Source: Acidobacteriota bacterium
GTDB taxonomy: Bacteria > Acidobacteriota > Vicinamibacteria > Vicinamibacterales > 2-12-FULL-66-21
NCBI GenBank assembly: GCA_031361295.1
Contig: JANMCN010000036.1
Coordinates: 3,716 to 67,715 of the forward strand
Length of the DNA stretch: 64,000 bases
Direction: 5' to 3'
Shown here: piece by piece, positions 21,460 through 34,678 of the stretch
Numbering within the stretch: position 1 is the first letter of the stretch
Layout: every line of letters starts with the position of its first letter
Position numbers and translations under genes: made by a program
Notes under the pieces: generated by a model
What the model saw: only the letters and a program-made list of their open reading frames with translations
Database searches by the model: none
What the model was told of the DNA's origin: nothing

Positions 21460-23262
21460 CTAGGTCGTGATGCGCACGGCCACCGCGGTCATGTCGTCGT
21501 TGGGTGGCGTCTCCCCCCGCCAGTCGTGCACGGCGGCGAAGATCCCCTCGACGATTCGTGCGGGCGGGAGATCGCGCAGCCTCCCCACGACCTCCAGGAG
21601 GCGCGCGGCGGTGAATTCCTGGCCGCTCTTGTTCATCGCTTCGTAAACGCCGTCGGTGCAAATCACGAAGAGGTCCCCCATGTGGAGGGGGAACGAGACC
21701 TCGTCGTACGTGGAGCCTTGGAACGAACCGAGCGGAACGCCGGGCAGCTCGATCTGCGAGCAGCTGTCGGCGGTACAGCGAATCGGGTACGGCAGGCCGG
21801 AGTTCGCCAGCGTCATGATGCGCCGTTTCAGGTCGAACACCGTGTAGCAGAGCGTGCAGTAATACTCCTCGAGCTGCCGCTGCTGCAGGATCGTGTTGAC
21901 TGACGACAACACGCCTGCGGGGCTCGACCGGTCGGGCAGATACCGCCGCCGGAACGTGCGGCCTCGAATCAGCTCGGCGGCGAACACGCTGTACAGCGCG
22001 GCCGGCACGCCCTTCCCGGACACGTCACCCACCGCGACGACCAGCGTGTGCGATTCCGGGGACAGATAGTCGTGGAAGTCGCCGCCTAGCTCAAGCGCCG
22101 GCGCGAAGGCCGCCGCGACGTCGATGCCCTTGAGCCGCTTCGGCGGCGCCGCGGGCAGCAGGGCCGTCTGCACGCGCTGCGCAAACCGAAGCTCCTTCTC
22201 GAGCCGGTCCTCGTTCGACCGGACCTCCTCGTACAGGCGCGCGTTCTCGATGGCCACGGCGGCCTGGCTGGCCAGCAGCGTGAGAATCTCGACGTCGCGT
22301 TTGCTGAACGCGTCGAGCTCCGGACTCTCGAGGTCGACGACGCCGATGCACCGGTCCTTCAGGAGCAGCGGGATCGCCAGCTCCGATCGGACGTCCGGCA
22401 CCAGCTTGATGTAGCGCGGATCCTGCGACACGTCGGCGACGAGGACCGCCTCGCGGTGCAGTGCCGCGTAGCCCACGAGCCCTTCGCCCAGGCGCAACGG
22501 GGGAACCTGCACCTTCTCGCCGTACTGCACCGCGAGCTTCATCTCGAGCTCGCCGCGCTCTTCGTTCAACAGCAGGATGCCGAACGTGCGGTACTCGATC
22601 AGCCGCTTCGTCGATTGCGCGATCCGTGCGAACAGCTCGTCGGGCGCGAGCACCGACGCGACTTCGCGGCCGATCTCCGCCAGGGTCTCGAACGCTTCGG
22701 CGTCGCTCCGGCTCCGCTCGAAGAGCCTCGCGTTGATGAGCGCGACGGCGACATGCGCCCCGAACTGCCTGACGATGTCGACGTCGCGCGGCGTGAACTG
22801 GTCACGGTTGCGACTGAGGATGTTGAGCGCCCCGATGGGCCGCGACTTGTGCAGCAGCGGCACGACGATTTCCGAGTTCATGCCCGGCACGAACTCGATG
22901 TAGCGGGAGTCGGCGAGCAGGTCGTTGACGAGGAGCGGCTGCTCGCTCGCGACCGCGGCGCCGACGAGTCCCGCACCGAGCTTGAGCCGCAGCGGCTTGC
23001 CGGACTCGGGATACCCCACCGAGTACGCCGACCGAAGCTCGCCGCGCCGTTCGTCGAGGAGGTACACCGCGAAAGCTTCGAACGAAATCAGCCGCCCGAT
23101 CAGCCGCGGAATCTGGTGGAGCAGCTCATCGAGGTCCAGGACACTCGTCACCTGGCGCCCGAGGTCGAACAATGTCGTCAGGAGCTCGTGCTCGGCGTAG
23201 CCCGCCTGGGTGCCCGGCGCCGGTTCGGCGGGTGCCCTGTCCGATGGAATGCCTTGGCTCAC
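21460..23262 (-). CDS. GAF-GAF-PP2C (SpoIIE-type) phosphatase
   Basis: 600 aa with two GAF-like halves. C-terminal GGDFHDY, GDVSGKG, ICTDGVYEA and DDMTAVAV motifs. Confidence 0.85.
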   Translation of the reverse strand: MSQGIPSDRAPAEPAPGTQAGYAEHELLTTLFDLGRQVTSVLDLDELLHQIPRLIGRLISFEAFAVYLLDERRGELRSAYSVGYPESGKPLRLKLGAGLVGAAVASEQPLLVNDLLADSRYIEFVPGMNSEIVVPLLHKSRPIGALNILSRNRDQFTPRDVDIVRQFGAHVAVALINARLFERSRSDAEAFETLAEIGREVASVLAPDELFARIAQSTKRLIEYRTFGILLLNEERGELEMKLAVQYGEKVQVPPLRLGEGLVGYAALHREAVLVADVSQDPRYIKLVPDVRSELAIPLLLKDRCIGVVDLESPELDAFSKRDVEILTLLASQAAVAIENARLYEEVRSNEDRLEKELRFAQRVQTALLPAAPPKRLKGIDVAAAFAPALELGGDFHDYLSPESHTLVVAVGDVSGKGVPAALYSVFAAELIRGRTFRRRYLPDRSSPAGVLSSVNTILQQRQLEEYYCTLCYTVFDLKRRIMTLANSGLPYPIRCTADSCSQIELPGVPLGSFQGSTYDEVSFPLHMGDLFVICTDGVYEAMNKSGQEFTAARLLEVVGRLRDLPPARIVEGIFAAVHDWRGETPPNDDMTAVAVRITT

Positions 23263-28678: not shown

Positions 28679-30223
28679 GTGCCGAACGGCCCTCGCACAC
28701 CCGCGGCTCCCCCGCCCGAAGCGTTCGCGCGGCTGTTCGAGTCGGTGCACGAAGGCGTCTACATCGGGACCCTGTCGACCGACGCGGCCCGGACCCTGTC
28801 GGCCAATCCGTATCTCAAGCTGATGTTCGGATACGCGGTGGAAACGGCGCAGGACGAAGTGCGGCCGTTCGAGGCCGACCGGTTCGTGGACCCGCAGGCC
28901 CGCGAGGCCTTCCTGGAACGCCTCGACCGGGACGGTGCGATCACCGATTATCTGCTGCGGCTTCGGCGCGCCGATCGATCCCCGATCTGGGTGGAAGTGA
29001 CGGCGCACGCGGAGACCGCCGGCGCCGCCGTGCGGATCGAGGCGCTCATGCGCGACGTCACCGAGCGGAAACGCCTGGAAGACCAGGCGCGGGACTTGTA
29101 CCACCAGCTGCTGCAGGCGGAGAAGCTCGCGGCGCTCGGCCAGACGATTTCCGGCGTTGCCCACGAATTGAACAACCCGCTCGCGACGATCCTCACGTGG
29201 GCCGAGCGGCTCGCGCAGCGATCAGTGGACGACCAGACCCGGCGCGGCCTCGAGACGATCCTGAGCGAGTCCGAGCGGGCGGCCAAGATCGTGCGCAACC
29301 TGCTCACGTTCGCGCGCAAGCGGCACACCACGCGCGCCATGGTCGATCTGAATCAGGTCGTCCGCGAAACCCTCGCCTTGCGGTCGTACGAGCAGCGCTT
29401 GAGCAACATCACGACGATCGAAGCGCTCGCGTCGGGCCTCCCGCAGGTCTTCTCCGATCCGCATCAGCTCCAGCAGGTGCTCCTCAACCTCGTCATCAAC
29501 GCCGAGCAGGCGATGATCAGCGCGAACGGACGCGGCACGCTGGTGCTCCGCTCCTGGCACGACGCCGACCGCGACGCCGTCATTCTCGAGGTGAGCGACG
29601 ACGGGCCGGGTGTTCCCGACGACGTCCAGCCGCGCATCTTCGATCCCTTCTTCACGACGAAGGACGTCGGCAAGGGGACGGGTCTCGGATTGACCGTCGC
29701 GTACGCGATTGTGCAGGAGCACGGGGGCCGCATCACGGTGAAGTCCGGCGCGGGCCGCGGGGCGTCCTTCCACGTCGAGCTTCCGGTAGGCGCCGGGCCG
29801 CTCAAGCCTGCGCTGCCGCGGCCTCCCGAGCTGCCGTCGTTGTCGGACGATGTGGGCGCCGGAGCGGCTGTGCTGGTCGTCGAGGATGAAGCGGCACTCG
29901 GCGCCGCGGTGGCGGAGGCCCTGGCGGATGCGGGCTTCGTGGTGGACCGGGCCGGCGACGGACTCGAAGCGCTCGAGCAACTCCGGGCCCGTGCCTACGA
30001 CCTGATCATCTGCGATCTGAAGATGCCCCGCCTCGACGGCACGTCCTTCCATCGCGAGCTCGAGAAGATCGATCCCGCGATGGCGCGCAAGGTGCTTTTC
30101 GTCACCGGCGACGTGGCGGGCACGGAAGCGGAGCGCTTCCTCGACGAGACCTCGTGCCGGTGGCTCGCAAAGCCGTTCCGGCTGAAGGACCTGCTCCGCG
30201 TCGCGCGGGAGATGCTCGTCTAG
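28679..30223 (+). CDS. hybrid sensor histidine kinase (PAS-HisKA-HATPase-REC)
   Basis: H-box ISGVAHELNNPLATIL. N/G boxes present (NLVINAEQAM, DDGPGV, GTGLGL). C-terminal receiver (VLVVEDE...LIICDLKMPRLDG...KPF). Confidence 0.9.
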   Translation: MPNGPRTPAAPPPEAFARLFESVHEGVYIGTLSTDAARTLSANPYLKLMFGYAVETAQDEVRPFEADRFVDPQAREAFLERLDRDGAITDYLLRLRRADRSPIWVEVTAHAETAGAAVRIEALMRDVTERKRLEDQARDLYHQLLQAEKLAALGQTISGVAHELNNPLATILTWAERLAQRSVDDQTRRGLETILSESERAAKIVRNLLTFARKRHTTRAMVDLNQVVRETLALRSYEQRLSNITTIEALASGLPQVFSDPHQLQQVLLNLVINAEQAMISANGRGTLVLRSWHDADRDAVILEVSDDGPGVPDDVQPRIFDPFFTTKDVGKGTGLGLTVAYAIVQEHGGRITVKSGAGRGASFHVELPVGAGPLKPALPRPPELPSLSDDVGAGAAVLVVEDEAALGAAVAEALADAGFVVDRAGDGLEALEQLRARAYDLIICDLKMPRLDGTSFHRELEKIDPAMARKVLFVTGDVAGTEAERFLDETSCRWLAKPFRLKDLLRVAREMLV

Positions 30224-30250: not shown

Positions 30251-31156
30251 TCAGCGCGCGGCGGCCACCGGCGCCTGCGACGAAGCGCCGGCGGTTCGGG
30301 TGTGACGCCGCGGCGCCGTCGCCACGGGGGCCCGGTATTGCAGCACGACACCGCGGCCTTCCGACAGGTCGGCCTTCGCCATCCGGCGCCGGCGGATCGT
30401 CTGCTGGAACGAGAGAATCGCGGGGCTCACCGTCTCGTCGGCAAAGCACTCTGCACCGAGGGCCTTCTTCAGCCGCGAGACCGCGCGCGCGTGCAGCTGC
30501 GAGACCCGCGACTCGTTCACCCCAATCTCCGCCCCTATCTGTTTCATGGTCGCTTCGGCGTAGTAGTACAGGCCGATCACCTTCCGCTCGCGCGGAGGAA
30601 GCGAGGCGATCGCCGCGCGGATGCGATCGCGCACTTCCTGCTGTTCATAGGCTTTGTCGGGGGCCATGGGCTCGGACGGAACGAGGGCTGCCGGCAGCGA
30701 GGCGTTGTCGACATGATCGCCGGACGAGAGCGGCGACGTGGATTCGATGGTGTTGATGCGGACGATCGTCCGCCCGAGCCGGGCTTCGTCGGATCCGACA
30801 CGCGCCGCGAGGTCCGCCAGCGACGGTTCCGCTCCCAGCTCCCGCCGCAGCTCTTCGCGCGCCGTCTCCAGTTCCCGCCGCTGCCGCCGGACGCCGCGCG
30901 GCCAGGCGTCGCGACGGAGCGCGTCGATCATGGCCCCCCGCACCCGCCGTTCTGCGAAGGTCTCGAACTTGATGCCCCGTCCCTCGTCGAATCGGCAGGC
31001 CGCGTCGATGAGGCCGATCATCCCGTCCTGCACCAGATCGCCGAGCTCGATGGAGTGGGGCATCGAGGCCGCCACGCGCCGCGCGAGCGACTCCACGAAG
31101 GGAAGTCCGGCGGCAATCCGATCCCGATTGTGAGCGGCGAGTGGCTGGCGCTGCAT
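30251..31156 (-). CDS. FliA/WhiG-type (group 3) RNA polymerase sigma factor with C-terminal extension
   Basis: Region 2 (DLVQDGMIGLIDAACRFD), region 4 (ATMKQIGAEIGVNESRVSQLHARAV) and about 65 extra C-terminal residues. Start set to the ATG at 31156, which has a GGAGGA SD 8 nt upstream. Confidence 0.85.
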   Translation of the reverse strand: MQRQPLAAHNRDRIAAGLPFVESLARRVAASMPHSIELGDLVQDGMIGLIDAACRFDEGRGIKFETFAERRVRGAMIDALRRDAWPRGVRRQRRELETAREELRRELGAEPSLADLAARVGSDEARLGRTIVRINTIESTSPLSSGDHVDNASLPAALVPSEPMAPDKAYEQQEVRDRIRAAIASLPPRERKVIGLYYYAEATMKQIGAEIGVNESRVSQLHARAVSRLKKALGAECFADETVSPAILSFQQTIRRRRMAKADLSEGRGVVLQYRAPVATAPRRHTRTAGASSQAPVAAAR

Positions 31157-31211
31157 GACTCGGTTCCTCCAGAGGATTGTGTCTGCCACAAACGGCAGAC
31201 CTTGCCCTAGC

Positions 31212-31226
31212 GCAACCGGGGTGCCA
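31212..31226 (-). promoter_or_regulatory. sigma-54 promoter (-24/-12) for the FliA-type sigma gene
   Basis: The minus strand reads TGGCACcccggTTGC, a match to TGGCAC-N5-TTGC. It lies about 45-55 nt upstream of the ATG at 31156. The predicted leader starts with the hairpin GTCTGCC-N6-GGCAGAC (31181..31200). Confidence 0.6.
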
Positions 31227-31363
31227 CGAGAACACGATCCAAAAGCGAAACCACGCGGAAATAGTCCGCTAGAACTAAGCAGCTGAAATGTAAGGGGTTA
31301 GCGTGTGAACAGGTGTGAAGGAGCGGGCAGATCCGAGCGGAAACGTTGAGCTATTGTGCCATT

Positions 31364-31407
31364 AAATTGACTGTCGTGGCTCGTTGTGTCAAATAAATGA
31401 CTGTCGT
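31364..31407. repeat. two direct repeats AAAT(T)GACTGTCGT spaced 30 bp; candidate enhancer (UAS) for the sigma-54 promoter
   Basis: TGACTGTCGT occurs at 31368..31377 and 31398..31407, 140-180 bp upstream of the -24 element, in a low-GC spacer. Confidence 0.35.
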
Positions 31408-31640
31408 CACGCCTTCGAACGAGTGCGGACTTCCCGTGCGGTCGCCATGGCATCGAGGACGCTCGCGACCACCTGGGAGGCGCGCGCGCGCGTCATCTCG
31501 TCGGCCGCCTTGGCCTCGAGCAATTCCGCGTTCGCCAGGATGATTCCCAGCTGGTTGTTCAACCGGTGAAAGAGCAGTCCGAGGTCGGGCGGTTCGGTCA
31601 CGGACGTCCTCCCGGTTCTGGGGTCGGCGGCCGGAGCCAT
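31407..31640 (-). CDS. orphan DHp-like (histidine-kinase H-box helical hairpin) 77-aa protein
   Basis: In-frame C-terminal part of track ORF 31407..32075. Sequence MAPAADPRTGRTSVTEPPDLGLLFHRLNNQLGIILANAELLEAKAADEMTRARASQVVASVLDAMATAREVRTRSKA. Its H-box resembles VAHELNNPLATIL of the neighbouring kinase. Its ATG overlaps the upstream stop (TGATG). Confidence 0.5.
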   Translation of the reverse strand: MAPAADPRTGRTSVTEPPDLGLLFHRLNNQLGIILANAELLEAKAADEMTRARASQVVASVLDAMATAREVRTRSKA

Positions 31641-31846
31641 CAAGCTTCTTTGCTCGTCAGTTCGCCCGCGCGCCCCGGCTCGCGCCAGAGCGTGTCGACG
31701 AAGATGCGCACCGATCCGCCGGCGGTACGGACGTACTCGACCTTGCCGCTGGCGATCCAGTTGTAAATCGTGCGGCGGCTGACGCCGACCAGCTCGCACG
31801 CCTTCATGATCGAAATCGTCTTGCGATCGGTGATCATCTCTCTCAT
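31640..31846 (-). CDS. excisionase/MerR-superfamily small HTH DNA-binding protein
   Basis: 68 aa. Contains ISIMKACELVGVSRRTIYNWIASGKV. Confidence 0.75.
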   Translation of the reverse strand: MREMITDRKTISIMKACELVGVSRRTIYNWIASGKVEYVRTAGGSVRIFVDTLWREPGRAGELTSKEA

Positions 31847-32062
31847 CGCCAGGCCCGGTACCGACGGGCGTGAGTGGGTTGCCGCATTCGAGGTTCACAA
31901 GCGTTATCGGACGAGCGCGCACGCCGCTGTAGCCTCGAGCGATCGCGCCGACAGGCCATTCGGATCGTTTCAGGACTTCGTGGACACGCGCCGTCACCTG
32001 CTGACCAACGGGTCGGGCTCGGCACGATCGCAGGCGTGGAAAATCCCGTTTCGCGACGCGCA

Positions 32063-32091
32063 TTGACCGCTCCACCGGGGGGTGTCAAAAT
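32063..32091 (+). promoter_or_regulatory. candidate sigma-70-type promoter (TTGACC-N17-CAAAAT) for the bEBP gene
   Basis: Read directly. The -10 element ends 14 nt before the ATG at 32106 and there is no SD, so the leader is short or absent. Confidence 0.3.
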
Positions 32092-32105
32092 GCCGTCGCG
32101 CCTGA

Positions 32106-33506
32106 ATGTCTGACGGCCAGAAGCATCTCCTGATTGTCGACGACGAAAACGCGCTGCGCGAGGCCATCGCGGAGCGCCTCGGGGATCATGGCTTCGTCGT
32201 CGAGCAGGCCGACAGCGGCGAGGCCGCGCTCCAGCGCCTCGCGGAATTCGCCTTCGACATCCTCATCACGGATCTGCGTCTTCCCGGAATCGACGGCCGG
32301 AAGGTCCTGGATGCCGCGCTCGAGCGGTACCCCGAGATCATCGCCATCGTCATCACCGGCTACGGCACGGTGAAGGACGCCGTCGAGGCGATCAAGCAGG
32401 GGGCCGCGGATTTCATCACCAAGCCGTTCCAGTTCGACGCGCTTCTCCACGTGCTGCGATCGGCGCTCGAGCAGCGCCGGCTGAAATCGGAGAATGCCTA
32501 TCTCCGATCGCAGCTCGAAGAGCGATACCGCATTGACGGTCTGGTCGGCCAGAGCCGCATCATGCGCGATCTGTTTCACCTCCTCGAGACCGTCGCGACC
32601 ACGTCGAGCACGGTGCTGATCACCGGGGAGACCGGCACGGGCAAGGAGCTCGCCGCGCGCGCCATCCATCACGCGAGCCCGCGGCGCGCGAACCGGTTCG
32701 TCGCCATCAACTGCAGCGCCATCCCGGAGACGCTGCTCGAAGCGGAGCTCTTCGGACACGTCCGCGGCGCGTTCACGGGCGCGGTCGCGACTCGCCAGGG
32801 GCGGCTCGAACAGGCCCACAAGGGCACGCTGTTCCTCGACGAAGTGGGCACGATGAGCCCGGCGCTGCAGGCAAAGCTGCTGCGCGTGCTGCAGGAGCGC
32901 GAGTTCGAGCGGGTCGGAGACTCGCACACCGTCAAGATCGACGTGCGGGTGATCGCGGCGACGCACTCCGACCTCGCGCGCATGGTGTCGGAGGGGACGT
33001 TCCGCGAAGACCTGTTCTACCGGCTGAACGTCATCCCGGTGCAGTTGCCCTCGCTGCGCGAACGCCGCGACGACGTGCCGCTGCTCGTGCAGCACTTCCT
33101 GCAGAAGCTTGCAACGGAGGCCGGTCGCGGCCATGTCACGGTGTCGCAGGACGCGCTGCGCCGCCTGATGGCCTATCAGTGGCCCGGCAACGTGCGGCAG
33201 CTCGAAAACATCGTCGAGCGCGCCCTCGCATTCAATCACGGACGCGCGCAGCTGGACGTCCAGGACCTTCCGGCGGAAATCCAGAACGGCCCATCGCCCG
33301 TCGATTCGTCGGAGGTCTGGTTTCCCGACGATGGTCTCGACTTCGAGCGGTACATCGAAGGGGTGGAGCTGTCGCTGATCCGGCGATCGCTCGAACGGAC
33401 GCAGGGCAACAAACGCCAGGCGGCCAAGCTGCTGAACCTGAAGCGCACCACGCTCATCGAGAAGCTCAAACGGCTTGAAGCCCCGGCCGCCGCAAAGCTG
33501 CCATAA
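32106..33506 (+). CDS. NtrC-type sigma-54-dependent response regulator (REC-AAA+-Fis HTH)
   Basis: Receiver domain (LLIVDDE, ILITDLRLPG), Walker A GETGTGKE, GAFTGA loop and C-terminal QAAKLLNLKRTTL. Confidence 0.92.
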   Translation: MSDGQKHLLIVDDENALREAIAERLGDHGFVVEQADSGEAALQRLAEFAFDILITDLRLPGIDGRKVLDAALERYPEIIAIVITGYGTVKDAVEAIKQGAADFITKPFQFDALLHVLRSALEQRRLKSENAYLRSQLEERYRIDGLVGQSRIMRDLFHLLETVATTSSTVLITGETGTGKELAARAIHHASPRRANRFVAINCSAIPETLLEAELFGHVRGAFTGAVATRQGRLEQAHKGTLFLDEVGTMSPALQAKLLRVLQEREFERVGDSHTVKIDVRVIAATHSDLARMVSEGTFREDLFYRLNVIPVQLPSLRERRDDVPLLVQHFLQKLATEAGRGHVTVSQDALRRLMAYQWPGNVRQLENIVERALAFNHGRAQLDVQDLPAEIQNGPSPVDSSEVWFPDDGLDFERYIEGVELSLIRRSLERTQGNKRQAAKLLNLKRTTLIEKLKRLEAPAAAKLP

Positions 33507-33514
33507 TCGACCAT

Positions 33515-34678
33515 ATGCCTCCCCGGCACCACTACTGGACGATCATCGTCGACGACAAGCCAACGGCTTTCCGCGCGGCGGAGCAGGAAGAGTTGATGCC
33601 GACGCTGCGTCAACTGCAGGCGCGCCACCCTGATGCGGTCATGAAGTGGTTCGCGCGCGGGCGGCTGTGGGAGTCCCAGGACATCGAACGCGCGGACGCG
33701 GCAGCCCGCCGCCGCCCGCCCGCAGGGGATCGTCGTCCGCCCGCAGGCGATAGACGCGGCCGTGAATGGCGGCCCGGGGGGGAGCACAAGGATCCGCGCG
33801 ACCGCTTCAAAATCCCGCGGGATGAAAAGCGACGGCGCTTCGCCGAGAATCTTTTTCGCGACCGTTCCGAGCCACCGCCACAGACCGCCGAGAAGCGGGG
33901 CGACGACGTTCCGCCGCCGCGAACGTCAATCGATGGGACTCCCCGGGACAATCGCGGCGCAACGCGGCCGTGGAGCCCCGCGGGCGCTCGCGGAGGAAAG
34001 CCCGCCTGGAACCGGGACGGCGCACGGGGAACGAAGCCTGGAAACCGCGAGGGCGACCACGGTGGCAAGCCGCCGTGGAAGCGTGACGGTCGTCCCGCGG
34101 CTCCGGCTTCGAGCCGCGGAGGAGACCGTGGCGCGAAGCCCGCCTGGCCGCGCGGCGAGGCGCGCGGGGACCGCGATCAACAGCGCGGTGGGAGGCCGGA
34201 CTGGAAGCCGGCGCCGTCGACCGACCGGCCCGGCGGCGACCGCAAGCCGTGGGGACGTCCCCCGGGCGCCCCGACGGGACGACCGCCGTGGTCGAAAGAT
34301 CGACCCGCGGGTCGCGACGGCACCTCCGGCAGCCGCCCGCCCGCGGGCGGATGGAAACGGGACAGGCCTGCCGGTGGAGGCTGGAAGAAGGATCGGCCCG
34401 CGCCTGGTGGCTCGTTTCCCAGGGATCGGCCGGATGGAAGTCGAGGCGGCCGGCCACCAGGCCCGCCGCGGCCACGAGACGATGAGCGGGGCGGGAGTGG
34501 ACCTGCCGGTCGGCCGGGCGGCTCAGGCCGGACCGGCGGCGCCGGGCGCCCGGGTGGAATCGGACGTCCGGGAGGGTCCGGCCGTCCCCCGGGCGGGGCG
34601 AATCGATTCGGGCCGCGCCCGCCACGGGGCGGGGGCAAACCGGGCGGCAGCGGCGGCGGTGGAGGCCGCAGCCGGTGA
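33515..34678 (+). CDS. protein with ~60-aa globular N-domain and ~320-aa Arg/Gly/Pro/Trp-repeat disordered tail
   Basis: Starts 8 nt after the bEBP stop. High GC3 in this frame. Repeats of G(K/R)P.W(K/N)RD type. Its stop overlaps the next start (GTGA). Other frames are also open, so the frame choice rests on context. Confidence 0.6.
   Translation: MPPRHHYWTIIVDDKPTAFRAAEQEELMPTLRQLQARHPDAVMKWFARGRLWESQDIERADAAARRRPPAGDRRPPAGDRRGREWRPGGEHKDPRDRFKIPRDEKRRRFAENLFRDRSEPPPQTAEKRGDDVPPPRTSIDGTPRDNRGATRPWSPAGARGGKPAWNRDGARGTKPGNREGDHGGKPPWKRDGRPAAPASSRGGDRGAKPAWPRGEARGDRDQQRGGRPDWKPAPSTDRPGGDRKPWGRPPGAPTGRPPWSKDRPAGRDGTSGSRPPAGGWKRDRPAGGGWKKDRPAPGGSFPRDRPDGSRGGRPPGPPRPRDDERGGSGPAGRPGGSGRTGGAGRPGGIGRPGGSGRPPGGANRFGPRPPRGGGKPGGSGGGGGRSR
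33716..33757 (+). repeat. 2 x 21-bp in-frame tandem duplication (PPAGDRR x2)
   Basis: ccgcccgcaggggatcgtcgt / ccgcccgcaggcgatagacgc, 17 of 21 identical. Confidence 0.7.

Follow-up and report, generated by a model that had tools for sequence, protein, structure and literature searches.

A 77-residue protein encoded in a 64-kb stretch of Vicinamibacterales DNA (Acidobacteriota; contig JANMCN010000036.1) appears to be a free-standing DHp (dimerization and histidine-phosphotransfer) hairpin of the HisKA type, paralogous to that of the adjacent hybrid histidine kinase. The whole stretch is referred to here as the window, and all coordinates are positions in it, with the strand in brackets. The protein, here called mini-DHp (31407..31640, −), carries the motif LLFHRLNNQLGIILANAELLE, with His25 as the putative phosphorylation site, as judged from AlphaFold2, hhalign and conservation. 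It represents an order-wide, uncharacterised family of minimal DHp proteins that sits inside what reads as a well-defined regulatory cascade.

The mini-DHp gene is real and under purifying selection. In a large protein collection 6669 relatives were found, the best 120 of which are 76–86 residues long and nearly all unnamed or hypothetical. At 50% identity the family forms 278 clusters; the best 150 are all of at most 182 residues, and there is therefore no full kinase among them. Codon differences from the orthologues number 560, 281 and 1539 at positions 1, 2 and 3, respectively, and the changes comprise 1190 synonymous and 675 non-synonymous ones. An earlier note on this DNA, made from the sequence alone, had allowed for the open reading frame (ORF) being poorly conserved; the third-position excess and the number of relatives speak to the contrary.

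The gene follows that of a 68-residue excisionase-type helix-turn-helix (HTH) protein (31640..31846, −). Both small ORFs lie on the minus strand where the earlier note had placed them, and its reading of TGATG at 31638–31642 holds, the HTH stop codon (TGA) and the mini-DHp start codon (ATG) having one base in common. Such an overlap (ATGA, TGATG or GTGA) is found in most close relatives, while in distant relatives the two genes are separated by a gap of 5–80 nucleotides. There is an alternative conserved start 11 codons ahead of the His, which in the window is GTG 31601 after GGAGG. A start codon is present at this position in ~55 of 85 loci, and the NCBI gene call for one cluster member is a 65-residue form. 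Because of this second conserved start, mini-DHp may be a protein of 64 residues, and its coupling to the HTH gene may be looser than the earlier note assumed. The first 13–19 residues are variable and predicted to be disordered. Upstream of mini-DHp its reading frame also runs through the HTH gene for 222 codons with no stop codon (31407–32075, −), as happens in GC-rich DNA, and over-long mini-DHp gene calls exist in the databases (P0127, P0172).

The AlphaFold2 model, obtained for a single chain from a 70-sequence alignment, consists of helices at residues 20–43 and 48–76, with a pLDDT (predicted local distance difference test) of 96–99 in the core, in agreement with the two-helix hairpin proposed in the earlier note. 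Every residue belongs either to the disordered tail or to the hairpin, whose size fits the ~60–70 residues of a HisKA hairpin. The chain terminates after helix 2 and has no HATPase_c domain, so the absence of an ATP-binding domain stands as first described. The family motif is LLFHRLNNQLGIILA[NH]AELLE.K..D...RARA.QVV. A wide hydrophobic stripe on helix 1, read from the sequence, is compatible with a four-helix bundle, and the protein presumably forms a homodimer of this type.

The neighbouring hybrid kinase (28679..30223, +) has PAS, HisKA, HATPase_c and REC (receiver) domains by Pfam, and its H-box is VAHELNNPLATILTWAERL. The likeness between the two H-boxes, to which the earlier note had drawn attention, lies beyond chance: in hhalign the mini-DHp family matches the DHp of the orthologues of this kinase with a probability of 93.5% (P = 2.2e-7, 38 columns). 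The match spans helix 1 and the loop, with His25 aligned on the phospho-accepting His of the kinase, and against an alignment of the full-length kinase it falls exactly at residues 156–195. Controls were negative, with P = 0.3 for the reversed DHp and P = 0.045–0.7 for the sigma factor, HTH and enhancer-binding protein alignments. When a hidden Markov model (HMM) of the family was run against all six-frame ORFs of the window, only the adjacent hybrid kinase was picked up (18.8 bits). At a lax threshold, 19 of 70 family members weakly matched Pfam HisKA (PF00512; best E = 8e-4), the only Pfam family matched repeatedly, every other one being hit by at most 4 of the 70.

A sensitive profile search thus leads back to the neighbouring kinase, while the searches against solved structures gave nothing significant. 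Among PDB sequences the family profile found no kinase DHp at E ≤ 10. The top match was the C-terminal helix of a GAF domain, which is not a DHp and was rejected as an identity, and the sole histidine-kinase entry listed (5dfx, E = 0.66) was matched at residues 183–203 of 215, near the C-terminal end. Since only the window kinase was found, and no DHp in the PDB, mini-DHp looks like a paralogue of this kinase type rather than a generic DHp. Foldseek searches of the PDB with the model also returned no significant match (all E ≥ 0.42). The GacS DHp ranked at the top (7n0e, E = 0.42, not significant), and DHps of GacS, ERS1, CpxA, ZraS and RetS were frequent in the list; these entries are compatible with a DHp fold and not proof of it, because a helical hairpin is too simple to discriminate.

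The conserved His25 is present in 135 of 137 relatives, and its absence from orthologues, a further possibility raised in the earlier note, is thus not what is seen. The residues that follow were counted in the 131 relatives with a recognisable H-box. Position H+1 is Arg in 105, Gln in 16 and acidic (Glu) in one; H+3 is Asn in 126; H+4 is Asn in all 131 (Asn29 in the window protein); and H+5 is never Pro. In HisKA kinases, an acidic H+1 residue is needed for kinase activity only, and Thr or Asn at H+4 for phosphatase activity only (PMC3510030), with the His making a chemical contribution to the phosphatase reaction (PMC7005713). With Arg or Gln at H+1, and almost never an acidic residue, mini-DHp looks kinase-dead. 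Since H+1 is lost and the His and the H+4 Asn are retained, the sequence carries what appears to be the signature of a kinase-dead module still able to act on receivers. In sum, mini-DHp resembles a HisKA DHp in structure and in the majority of its catalytic features, but it is without the kinase-specific residues and does not reach the Pfam threshold.

The phosphatase residue of the H-x-x-x-[T/N] motif known from CrdS, HK853 and EnvZ domain A is invariant in the mini-DHp family, and in lacking the kinase-specific acidic residue the protein corresponds to the phosphatase-only class of mutants (PMC3510030). In these cases the DHp is part of a complete kinase or was truncated in the laboratory, whereas mini-DHp is a natural stand-alone gene. 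The isolated EnvZ DHp was first reported to dephosphorylate OmpR~P, according to the account cited in PMC8971529. Receiver-directed phosphoryl chemistry is the natural function to propose for mini-DHp, because it is a DHp hairpin, is paralogous to a kinase DHp and has a His under strong selection. In one relative (P0265, L089 188–439) Asp replaces the conserved His (LLLDRLNSQLG). Only one contig, 1.3 kb long, carries this form, the gene having its usual neighbours there; the Asp may reflect an error in sequencing or may be naturally phosphomimetic.

The HTH and mini-DHp genes are part of a conserved five-gene cassette. A gene for a bacterial enhancer-binding protein (bEBP) is divergent from the HTH, mini-DHp and sigma factor genes, which run in that order, and the kinase gene converges on the sigma gene. 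This arrangement holds in essentially all sufficiently long loci (80 genome loci). It is also found in members whose mini-DHp is only 48–55% identical to that of the window, with different outer flanking genes. Where a locus extends far enough, the bEBP gene is without exception in its syntenic place, and so, in essentially all cases, is the kinase gene, pointing towards the sigma gene; the HTH and mini-DHp genes always occur together (89 loci). Divergent family members were checked for other gene contexts, and all readable ones have the same cassette; since no member was found in another context, phyletic patterns cannot single out an obligatory partner. All 80 loci from species-representative genomes belong to Vicinamibacterales or to unclassified Acidobacteriota bins and, as far as seen, the family is restricted to Vicinamibacterales. 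Three records labelled 'uncultured Bifidobacteriaceae bacterium' (L061, L063 and L075) carry a Vicinamibacterales-type cassette with 64–80% protein identity, and are probably mislabelled bins.

The earlier note correctly described the flanking genes as a hybrid kinase ending in a receiver and a receiver-containing bEBP, but overlooked the sigma gene between the mini-DHp ORF and the kinase. This 312-residue ORF (30251..31189, −) belongs to the FliA/WhiG family: it scores 194.7 bits against TIGR02479 FliA_WhiG (cut-off 189.6), lies below the WhiG and FliA equivalog cut-offs, and contains Sigma70_r2 and Sigma70_r4 by Pfam. The ORF begins at GTG 31189; the likely true start is ATG 31156, which is preceded by GGAGGAA, and many orthologues align from residue 12. 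The protein has a C-terminal extension of ~60 residues past region 4 (30251–30440, −), the Pfam and NCBIfam models ending near residue 245 of 312. In some relatives (L081, L087) the sigma and kinase genes overlap convergently by ~175 nucleotides.

The kinase scores 54.3 bits for HisKA, 92.8 for HATPase_c and 75.9 for Response_reg in Pfam, and its best NCBIfam matches are EspC, CckA, AtoS and ZraS, all under the equivalog cut-offs. The bEBP is of the NtrC/AtoC type (32106..33506, +; REC, sigma-54 AAA+ and HTH_8 by Pfam), with 243.8 bits for Sigma54_activat and 94.5 for Response_reg in addition to HTH_8; its best NCBIfam matches, AtoC and NtrC, are likewise under the equivalog cut-offs. The kinase core and the bEBP together best match the directly transferring pairs AtoS/AtoC, ZraS/ZraR and NtrB/NtrC.

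The HTH protein is a MerR-like winged-helix protein of the excisionase type, with 36.3 bits against PF12728 HTH_17 (cut-off 27) and 41.3 bits against TIGR01764 excisionase (cut-off 28.8). Among solved structures, the mycobacteriophage Xis Gp37 comes closest to it (4j2n, E = 7e-4); the match to BldC is weak (23.5 bits against the BldC model, cut-off 77). PHROGs returned only generic excisionase/HTH matches and PADLOC only a generic HTH match. Like Xis and BldC, it is a winged-helix protein of ~65 residues without an effector or dimerisation part. Unlike Xis, it is chromosomal, syntenic and conserved order-wide, with no integrase or phage context. Its identity across loci is 66–95%, which exceeds the conservation of mini-DHp in almost every locus. 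Two TTCACAC direct repeats, 10 bp apart (31319–31313 and 31309–31303, −), lie downstream of this gene in the mini-DHp–sigma intergenic region and might be HTH sites; they were set aside as such, being conserved in close relatives only and showing no overall enrichment.

The regulatory wiring around the HTH–mini-DHp pair had escaped the earlier note. Ahead of the sigma gene lies a predicted sigma-54 (−24/−12) promoter, TGGCACCCCGGTTGC (31212..31226, −), which is the sole TGGYAY-N5-TTGC match in the window; the transcript would be predicted to start ~11 nucleotides downstream of 31212. A TGG[CT]-N8-TGC element occurs at the same position in 80 of 82 loci. As read from the sequence, this promoter has the GG-N10-GC core (TGGCAC-N5-TTGC), upstream enhancer sites and a bEBP to go with it. 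The putative enhancers, or upstream activating sequences (UAS), are two palindromes of the consensus cGTCAA-N4-TTGACg, one promoter-proximal (GTCAATTTAATGGC, 31358..31371) and one promoter-distal (GTCATTTATTTGAC, 31388..31401), 30 bp from each other and ~148 and ~178 nucleotides upstream of the −24 element; the TTCACAC repeats described above fall between them and the promoter. Across 82 mini-DHp–sigma intergenic regions, 138 matches to G[TC]CA-N6-TG[AG]C were counted, compared to 1.8 expected, and 57 of the 82 loci have exactly two palindromes at fixed distances. Paired palindromes upstream of a sigma-54 promoter are the classical enhancer arrangement for a bEBP. There is no intrinsic terminator after the mini-DHp gene, and none is conserved across loci; transcription may therefore read through into the sigma gene itself.

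The HTH–mini-DHp operon is preceded, ~58 nucleotides upstream of the HTH start, by a predicted FliA/WhiG-type promoter, TACA-N16-TCCGATAA (31904..31931, −), the sole TA[ACT]A-N14-18-CCGATA match in the window, with a transcription start predicted shortly after 31904. CCGATA is present in all 79 loci compared. Of the CTA triplet, found at a fixed spacing, the C is retained in 73 of these loci, the T in 71 and the A in 69, whereas the sequence of the spacer varies. The element fits the published FliA/WhiG consensus of TAAA at −35 and GCCGATAA at −10 (PMC8325347). By position and precedent, it would be used by the adjacent sigma factor, and the palindromes would be bound by the bEBP. The simplest reading is a three-tier cascade, from the kinase to the bEBP with sigma-54, then to the FliA/WhiG-type sigma factor, and finally to the HTH protein and mini-DHp. 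Since the operon has a FliA/WhiG-type promoter, and the sigma gene a sigma-54 promoter with enhancers, mini-DHp appears to be an output of the bEBP and not a prerequisite for it.

Palindromes are also found on the other side of the operon. The spacer between the bEBP and HTH genes contains full palindromes in 37 of 79 loci (51 sites compared to 1.7 expected), suggesting autoregulation of the bEBP through palindromes near its start. In distant loci, full palindromes lie 10–30 nucleotides upstream of the bEBP start. A consensus scan of the window gave a weakly supported sigma-70-like promoter ahead of the bEBP gene, TTGACC-17-CAAAAT (32063..32091, +), which overlaps a half-site at 32082–32094 (GTCAAAAT) resembling the enhancer palindrome.

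We consider it plausible, although somewhat short of probable, that mini-DHp is induced by the cascade and acts on receivers, as a phosphatase or as a phosphoryl drain; both the receiver target and the direction of phosphoryl flow are what we infer. The phosphorylated NtrC-type bEBP would bind the two palindromes ~150 and ~180 nucleotides upstream of the sigma-54 promoter and turn on the gene of the FliA/WhiG-family sigma factor, which would in turn transcribe the HTH–mini-DHp operon from the TAcA-N16-tCCGATA promoter. The mini-DHp dimer would then dock on the receiver of the bEBP, of the kinase or of both, where His25 and Asn29 would either remove the phosphoryl group, as in a phosphatase, or take it back by reverse transfer. 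A delayed negative feedback on the cascade would be the outcome. We favour this feedback because it brings together a kinase-dead H-box that looks phosphatase-competent, the paralogy to the DHp of the cognate kinase and the apparent place of mini-DHp downstream of the bEBP, and because the kinase and bEBP resemble direct pairs and the same logic recurs elsewhere. In Pseudomonas syringae, HrpR and HrpS with sigma-54 activate hrpL, while the small protein HrpV regulates HrpS negatively (PMC3105312, PMC4145663). The circuit logic is like that of the cassette, in that the gene of an alternative sigma factor has a sigma-54 promoter on which a bEBP acts. PspF/PspA and FliA/FlgM are further precedents, and HrpV, PspA and FlgM are each made by the regulon that they restrain. 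The proteins are unrelated, these three not being DHp-like, and the cassette sigma factor is of the FliA/WhiG type, not an extracytoplasmic function (ECF) sigma factor.

Several observations weigh against this feedback role. The window protein itself matched no Pfam family (E ≤ 1) and no NCBIfam family. A receiver is a putative partner, and covariation between mini-DHp and the HTH protein, sigma factor, kinase or bEBP over 54 non-redundant cassettes named no partner, the signal being dominated by a two-clade phylogenetic split (Asn or His at position 37). Mini-DHp and the kinase need not share a partner, because the specificity positions in helix alpha1 (H+7, +8, +11, +12 and +15) differ between them. 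Contrary to the original report, the isolated EnvZ DHp had no detectable phosphatase activity in one cellular test (PMC8971529). A near-invariant His would equally suit a forward relay. Finally, it is by position and precedent that the adjacent sigma factor would use the operon promoter, and that the bEBP, and not the HTH protein, would bind the palindromes.

Such a forward relay, from the kinase receiver through the DHp to the bEBP, was the proposal of the earlier note. Its parts, a DHp hairpin with a conserved His, have been borne out, while the specific chain stays hypothetical, three points leaning away from it. Mini-DHp would here be a minimal phosphotransferase like Spo0B or ChpT, and its sigma-dependent expression would amount to positive feedback, as is known for relay components in Bacillus sporulation; we regard this as unlikely. 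The hybrid kinase does have a complete, functional-looking receiver and no HPt domain, the bEBP receiver is complete as well, and a DHp-type fold with an H-box whose His is so widely conserved would fit a shuttle. In having a basic residue beside the His, mini-DHp is also reminiscent of HPt domains. An HPt domain proper (PF01627, a four-helix monomer of at least ~110 residues with an HxxKG-type site) was rejected as an identity for mini-DHp, for which two helices are predicted and no Pfam match was found. The two receivers are 35% identical overall and share 32 of 60 residues in the half containing alpha1, but although the alpha1 cores are similar, the exposed residues differ, being Ala and Gly in one and Arg, Glu, Arg and His in the other. 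No shuttle is obviously needed, because the kinase and bEBP match pairs that transfer directly, and the sole conserved promoter of the operon, being of the FliA/WhiG type, places the mini-DHp gene downstream of the very bEBP whose activation would depend on it. Spo0B (Bacillus), ChpT (Caulobacter) and PhyT (Sphingomonas) resemble mini-DHp in having a HisKA-like hairpin, a conserved His and no kinase activity, and in acting on receivers. They differ in having a C-terminal CA-like alpha/beta domain, whereas mini-DHp ends after helix 2 with ~60 structured residues, and mini-DHp is apparently expressed downstream of the regulator to be fed, unlike these three. Spo0B and ChpT retain an acidic residue after the His, where mini-DHp has Arg or Gln. 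The window protein has no Pfam or NCBIfam match to the Spo0B and ChpT families, which are also not among the 25 Pfam families listed for 70 relatives. With neither the CA-like domain nor an acidic H+1, mini-DHp is not placed in the Spo0B/ChpT/PhyT group. The CckA–ChpT–CtrA system remains a precedent for a relay of this kind (PMC3433190, PMC9981736), since ChpT works with a PAS-HisKA-HATPase-REC hybrid kinase (PMC3433190, PMC5898713, PMC9981736) and the window kinase partly matches CckA models; its receiver, however, reads FVTGD and lacks the CckA-type FxSGY motif (PMC9981736).

Mini-DHp might instead block autophosphorylation of the kinase, as a decoy or pseudo-substrate, by forming a putative mixed bundle with the kinase DHp or by placing a dead-end H-box in its catalytic domain. 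A precedent is RetS–GacS (PDB 7n0e), where a DHp hairpin enters a bundle with that of a second kinase and thereby inhibits it, although RetS is a full multidomain kinase-like protein, unlike mini-DHp. The closest detectable relative of mini-DHp is the DHp of that very kinase, with which it has core alpha1 positions, loop length and a motif (D[DE]xTR) in common; Arg at H+1 would make it a non-phosphorylatable look-alike; its top structural match, which was not significant, is the GacS DHp from the RetS–GacS complex; and the best covarying position, only marginally above background, is residue 216 of the kinase, where DHp alpha2 ends. For a pure decoy there would be no need to keep a solvent-exposed His, an H+3 Asn and an H+4 Asn near-invariant order-wide down to ~45% identity, and we find this reading distinctly improbable. 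Still less probable is an anti-sigma role, in which the hairpin would hold the adjacent FliA/WhiG-type sigma factor as FlgM holds sigma-28 and RsiG holds WhiG, with the HTH protein as a possible modulator. The mini-DHp gene lies directly upstream of the sigma gene with no terminator between them, an order resembling rsbV-rsbW-sigB, and like flgM it is apparently under the promoter type of that sigma factor. WhiG does have small helical homodimeric anti-sigma factors, RsiG being such a partner of a non-flagellar FliA/WhiG-family sigma factor (PMC8325347). But none of 138 family members has the motif E(X)3S(X)2R(X)3Q(X)3D, by which RsiG binds c-di-GMP (cyclic di-GMP), or a relaxed form of it, and there was no sequence or fold match to FlgM or RsiG in Pfam (E ≤ 1), in PDB sequences or among the listed Foldseek matches. 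The significant similarity is instead to a kinase H-box, which an anti-sigma factor has no known reason to retain. The least probable reading makes the hairpin the dimerisation module of a monomeric HTH protein, the two forming a transcription factor, perhaps controlled by His phosphorylation, that would act on the cassette promoters. MerR-type proteins pair such an HTH with an antiparallel coiled coil, the two genes overlap or are closely spaced throughout the family, and they were never found apart in the 89 loci. Co-translation would, however, be equally expected of two independent feedback factors, and covariation with the HTH protein does not stand out. The only HTH–mini-DHp fusions found (P0136, L084 5001–5444; P0142, L085 5001–5549) were rejected as Rosetta-stone evidence: they are almost certainly frameshift artefacts, because they lie on error-prone long-read contigs on which the neighbouring bEBP and kinase genes are fragmented.

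Other features were seen in and around the cassette. Nine nucleotides past the bEBP stop codon begins a 387-residue ORF (33515–34678, +) with a conserved N-terminal segment (MPPRHHYWTIIVDDKPTAFRAAEQEELMPTLRQLQARHPDAVMKWFARGRLWES...) followed by a long low-complexity tail rich in Arg, Gly and Pro. Most related loci have this ORF in the same place, Pfam and PADLOC gave no match for it, and the cassette may thus have a sixth gene. A phosphatase with GAF-GAF-SpoIIE (PP2C) domains, of a kind often involved in partner-switching control of sigma factors, is encoded 7 kb from the cassette (21460–23262, −), and such a phosphatase lies within 5 kb of the cassette in 6 of 89 related loci (e.g. L087 5353–7137, L085 9697–10549). 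An Rfam scan found no known RNA family in the region.

A literature search for natural stand-alone DHp proteins found none described and, as far as searched, neither a natural DHp-only signalling protein nor a cascade from sigma-54 to a FliA/WhiG-type sigma factor in a soil lineage that is dominant and probably non-flagellar has been reported. Vicinamibacterales is an abundant soil order whose regulation has hardly been studied. To our knowledge, its described members are non-motile. The FliA/WhiG-type sigma factor is for this reason likely to be non-flagellar, and the cassette would add a likely case of such a sigma factor outside flagellar control. The kinase, bEBP, enhancers, sigma-54 promoter, alternative sigma factor, its promoter and the two putative feedback proteins together make up a fully specified, testable circuit.

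In a broader and more speculative view, which we hold to be rather unlikely, a DHp homodimer of ~60 residues per chain would be a complete signalling protein. One His and one Asn would move or remove the phosphoryl group of a receiver without a catalytic or CA-like domain, as a self-limiting or self-reinforcing last tier of a cascade from sigma-54 to a FliA/WhiG-type sigma factor in Acidobacteriota of the soil that have no flagella. In the boldest form of this idea, the phospho-His would control the co-translated HTH protein, and the pair would be a phospho-histidine-regulated transcription factor. No natural part of two-component signalling would be smaller than this hairpin, should it prove able to dephosphorylate receivers, or to shuttle phosphate between them, by itself. 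It would also show which functions of a DHp need no catalytic domain, a matter on which the EnvZ truncation data are contradictory, and would offer a compact, orthogonal phosphatase or shuttle for synthetic circuits.

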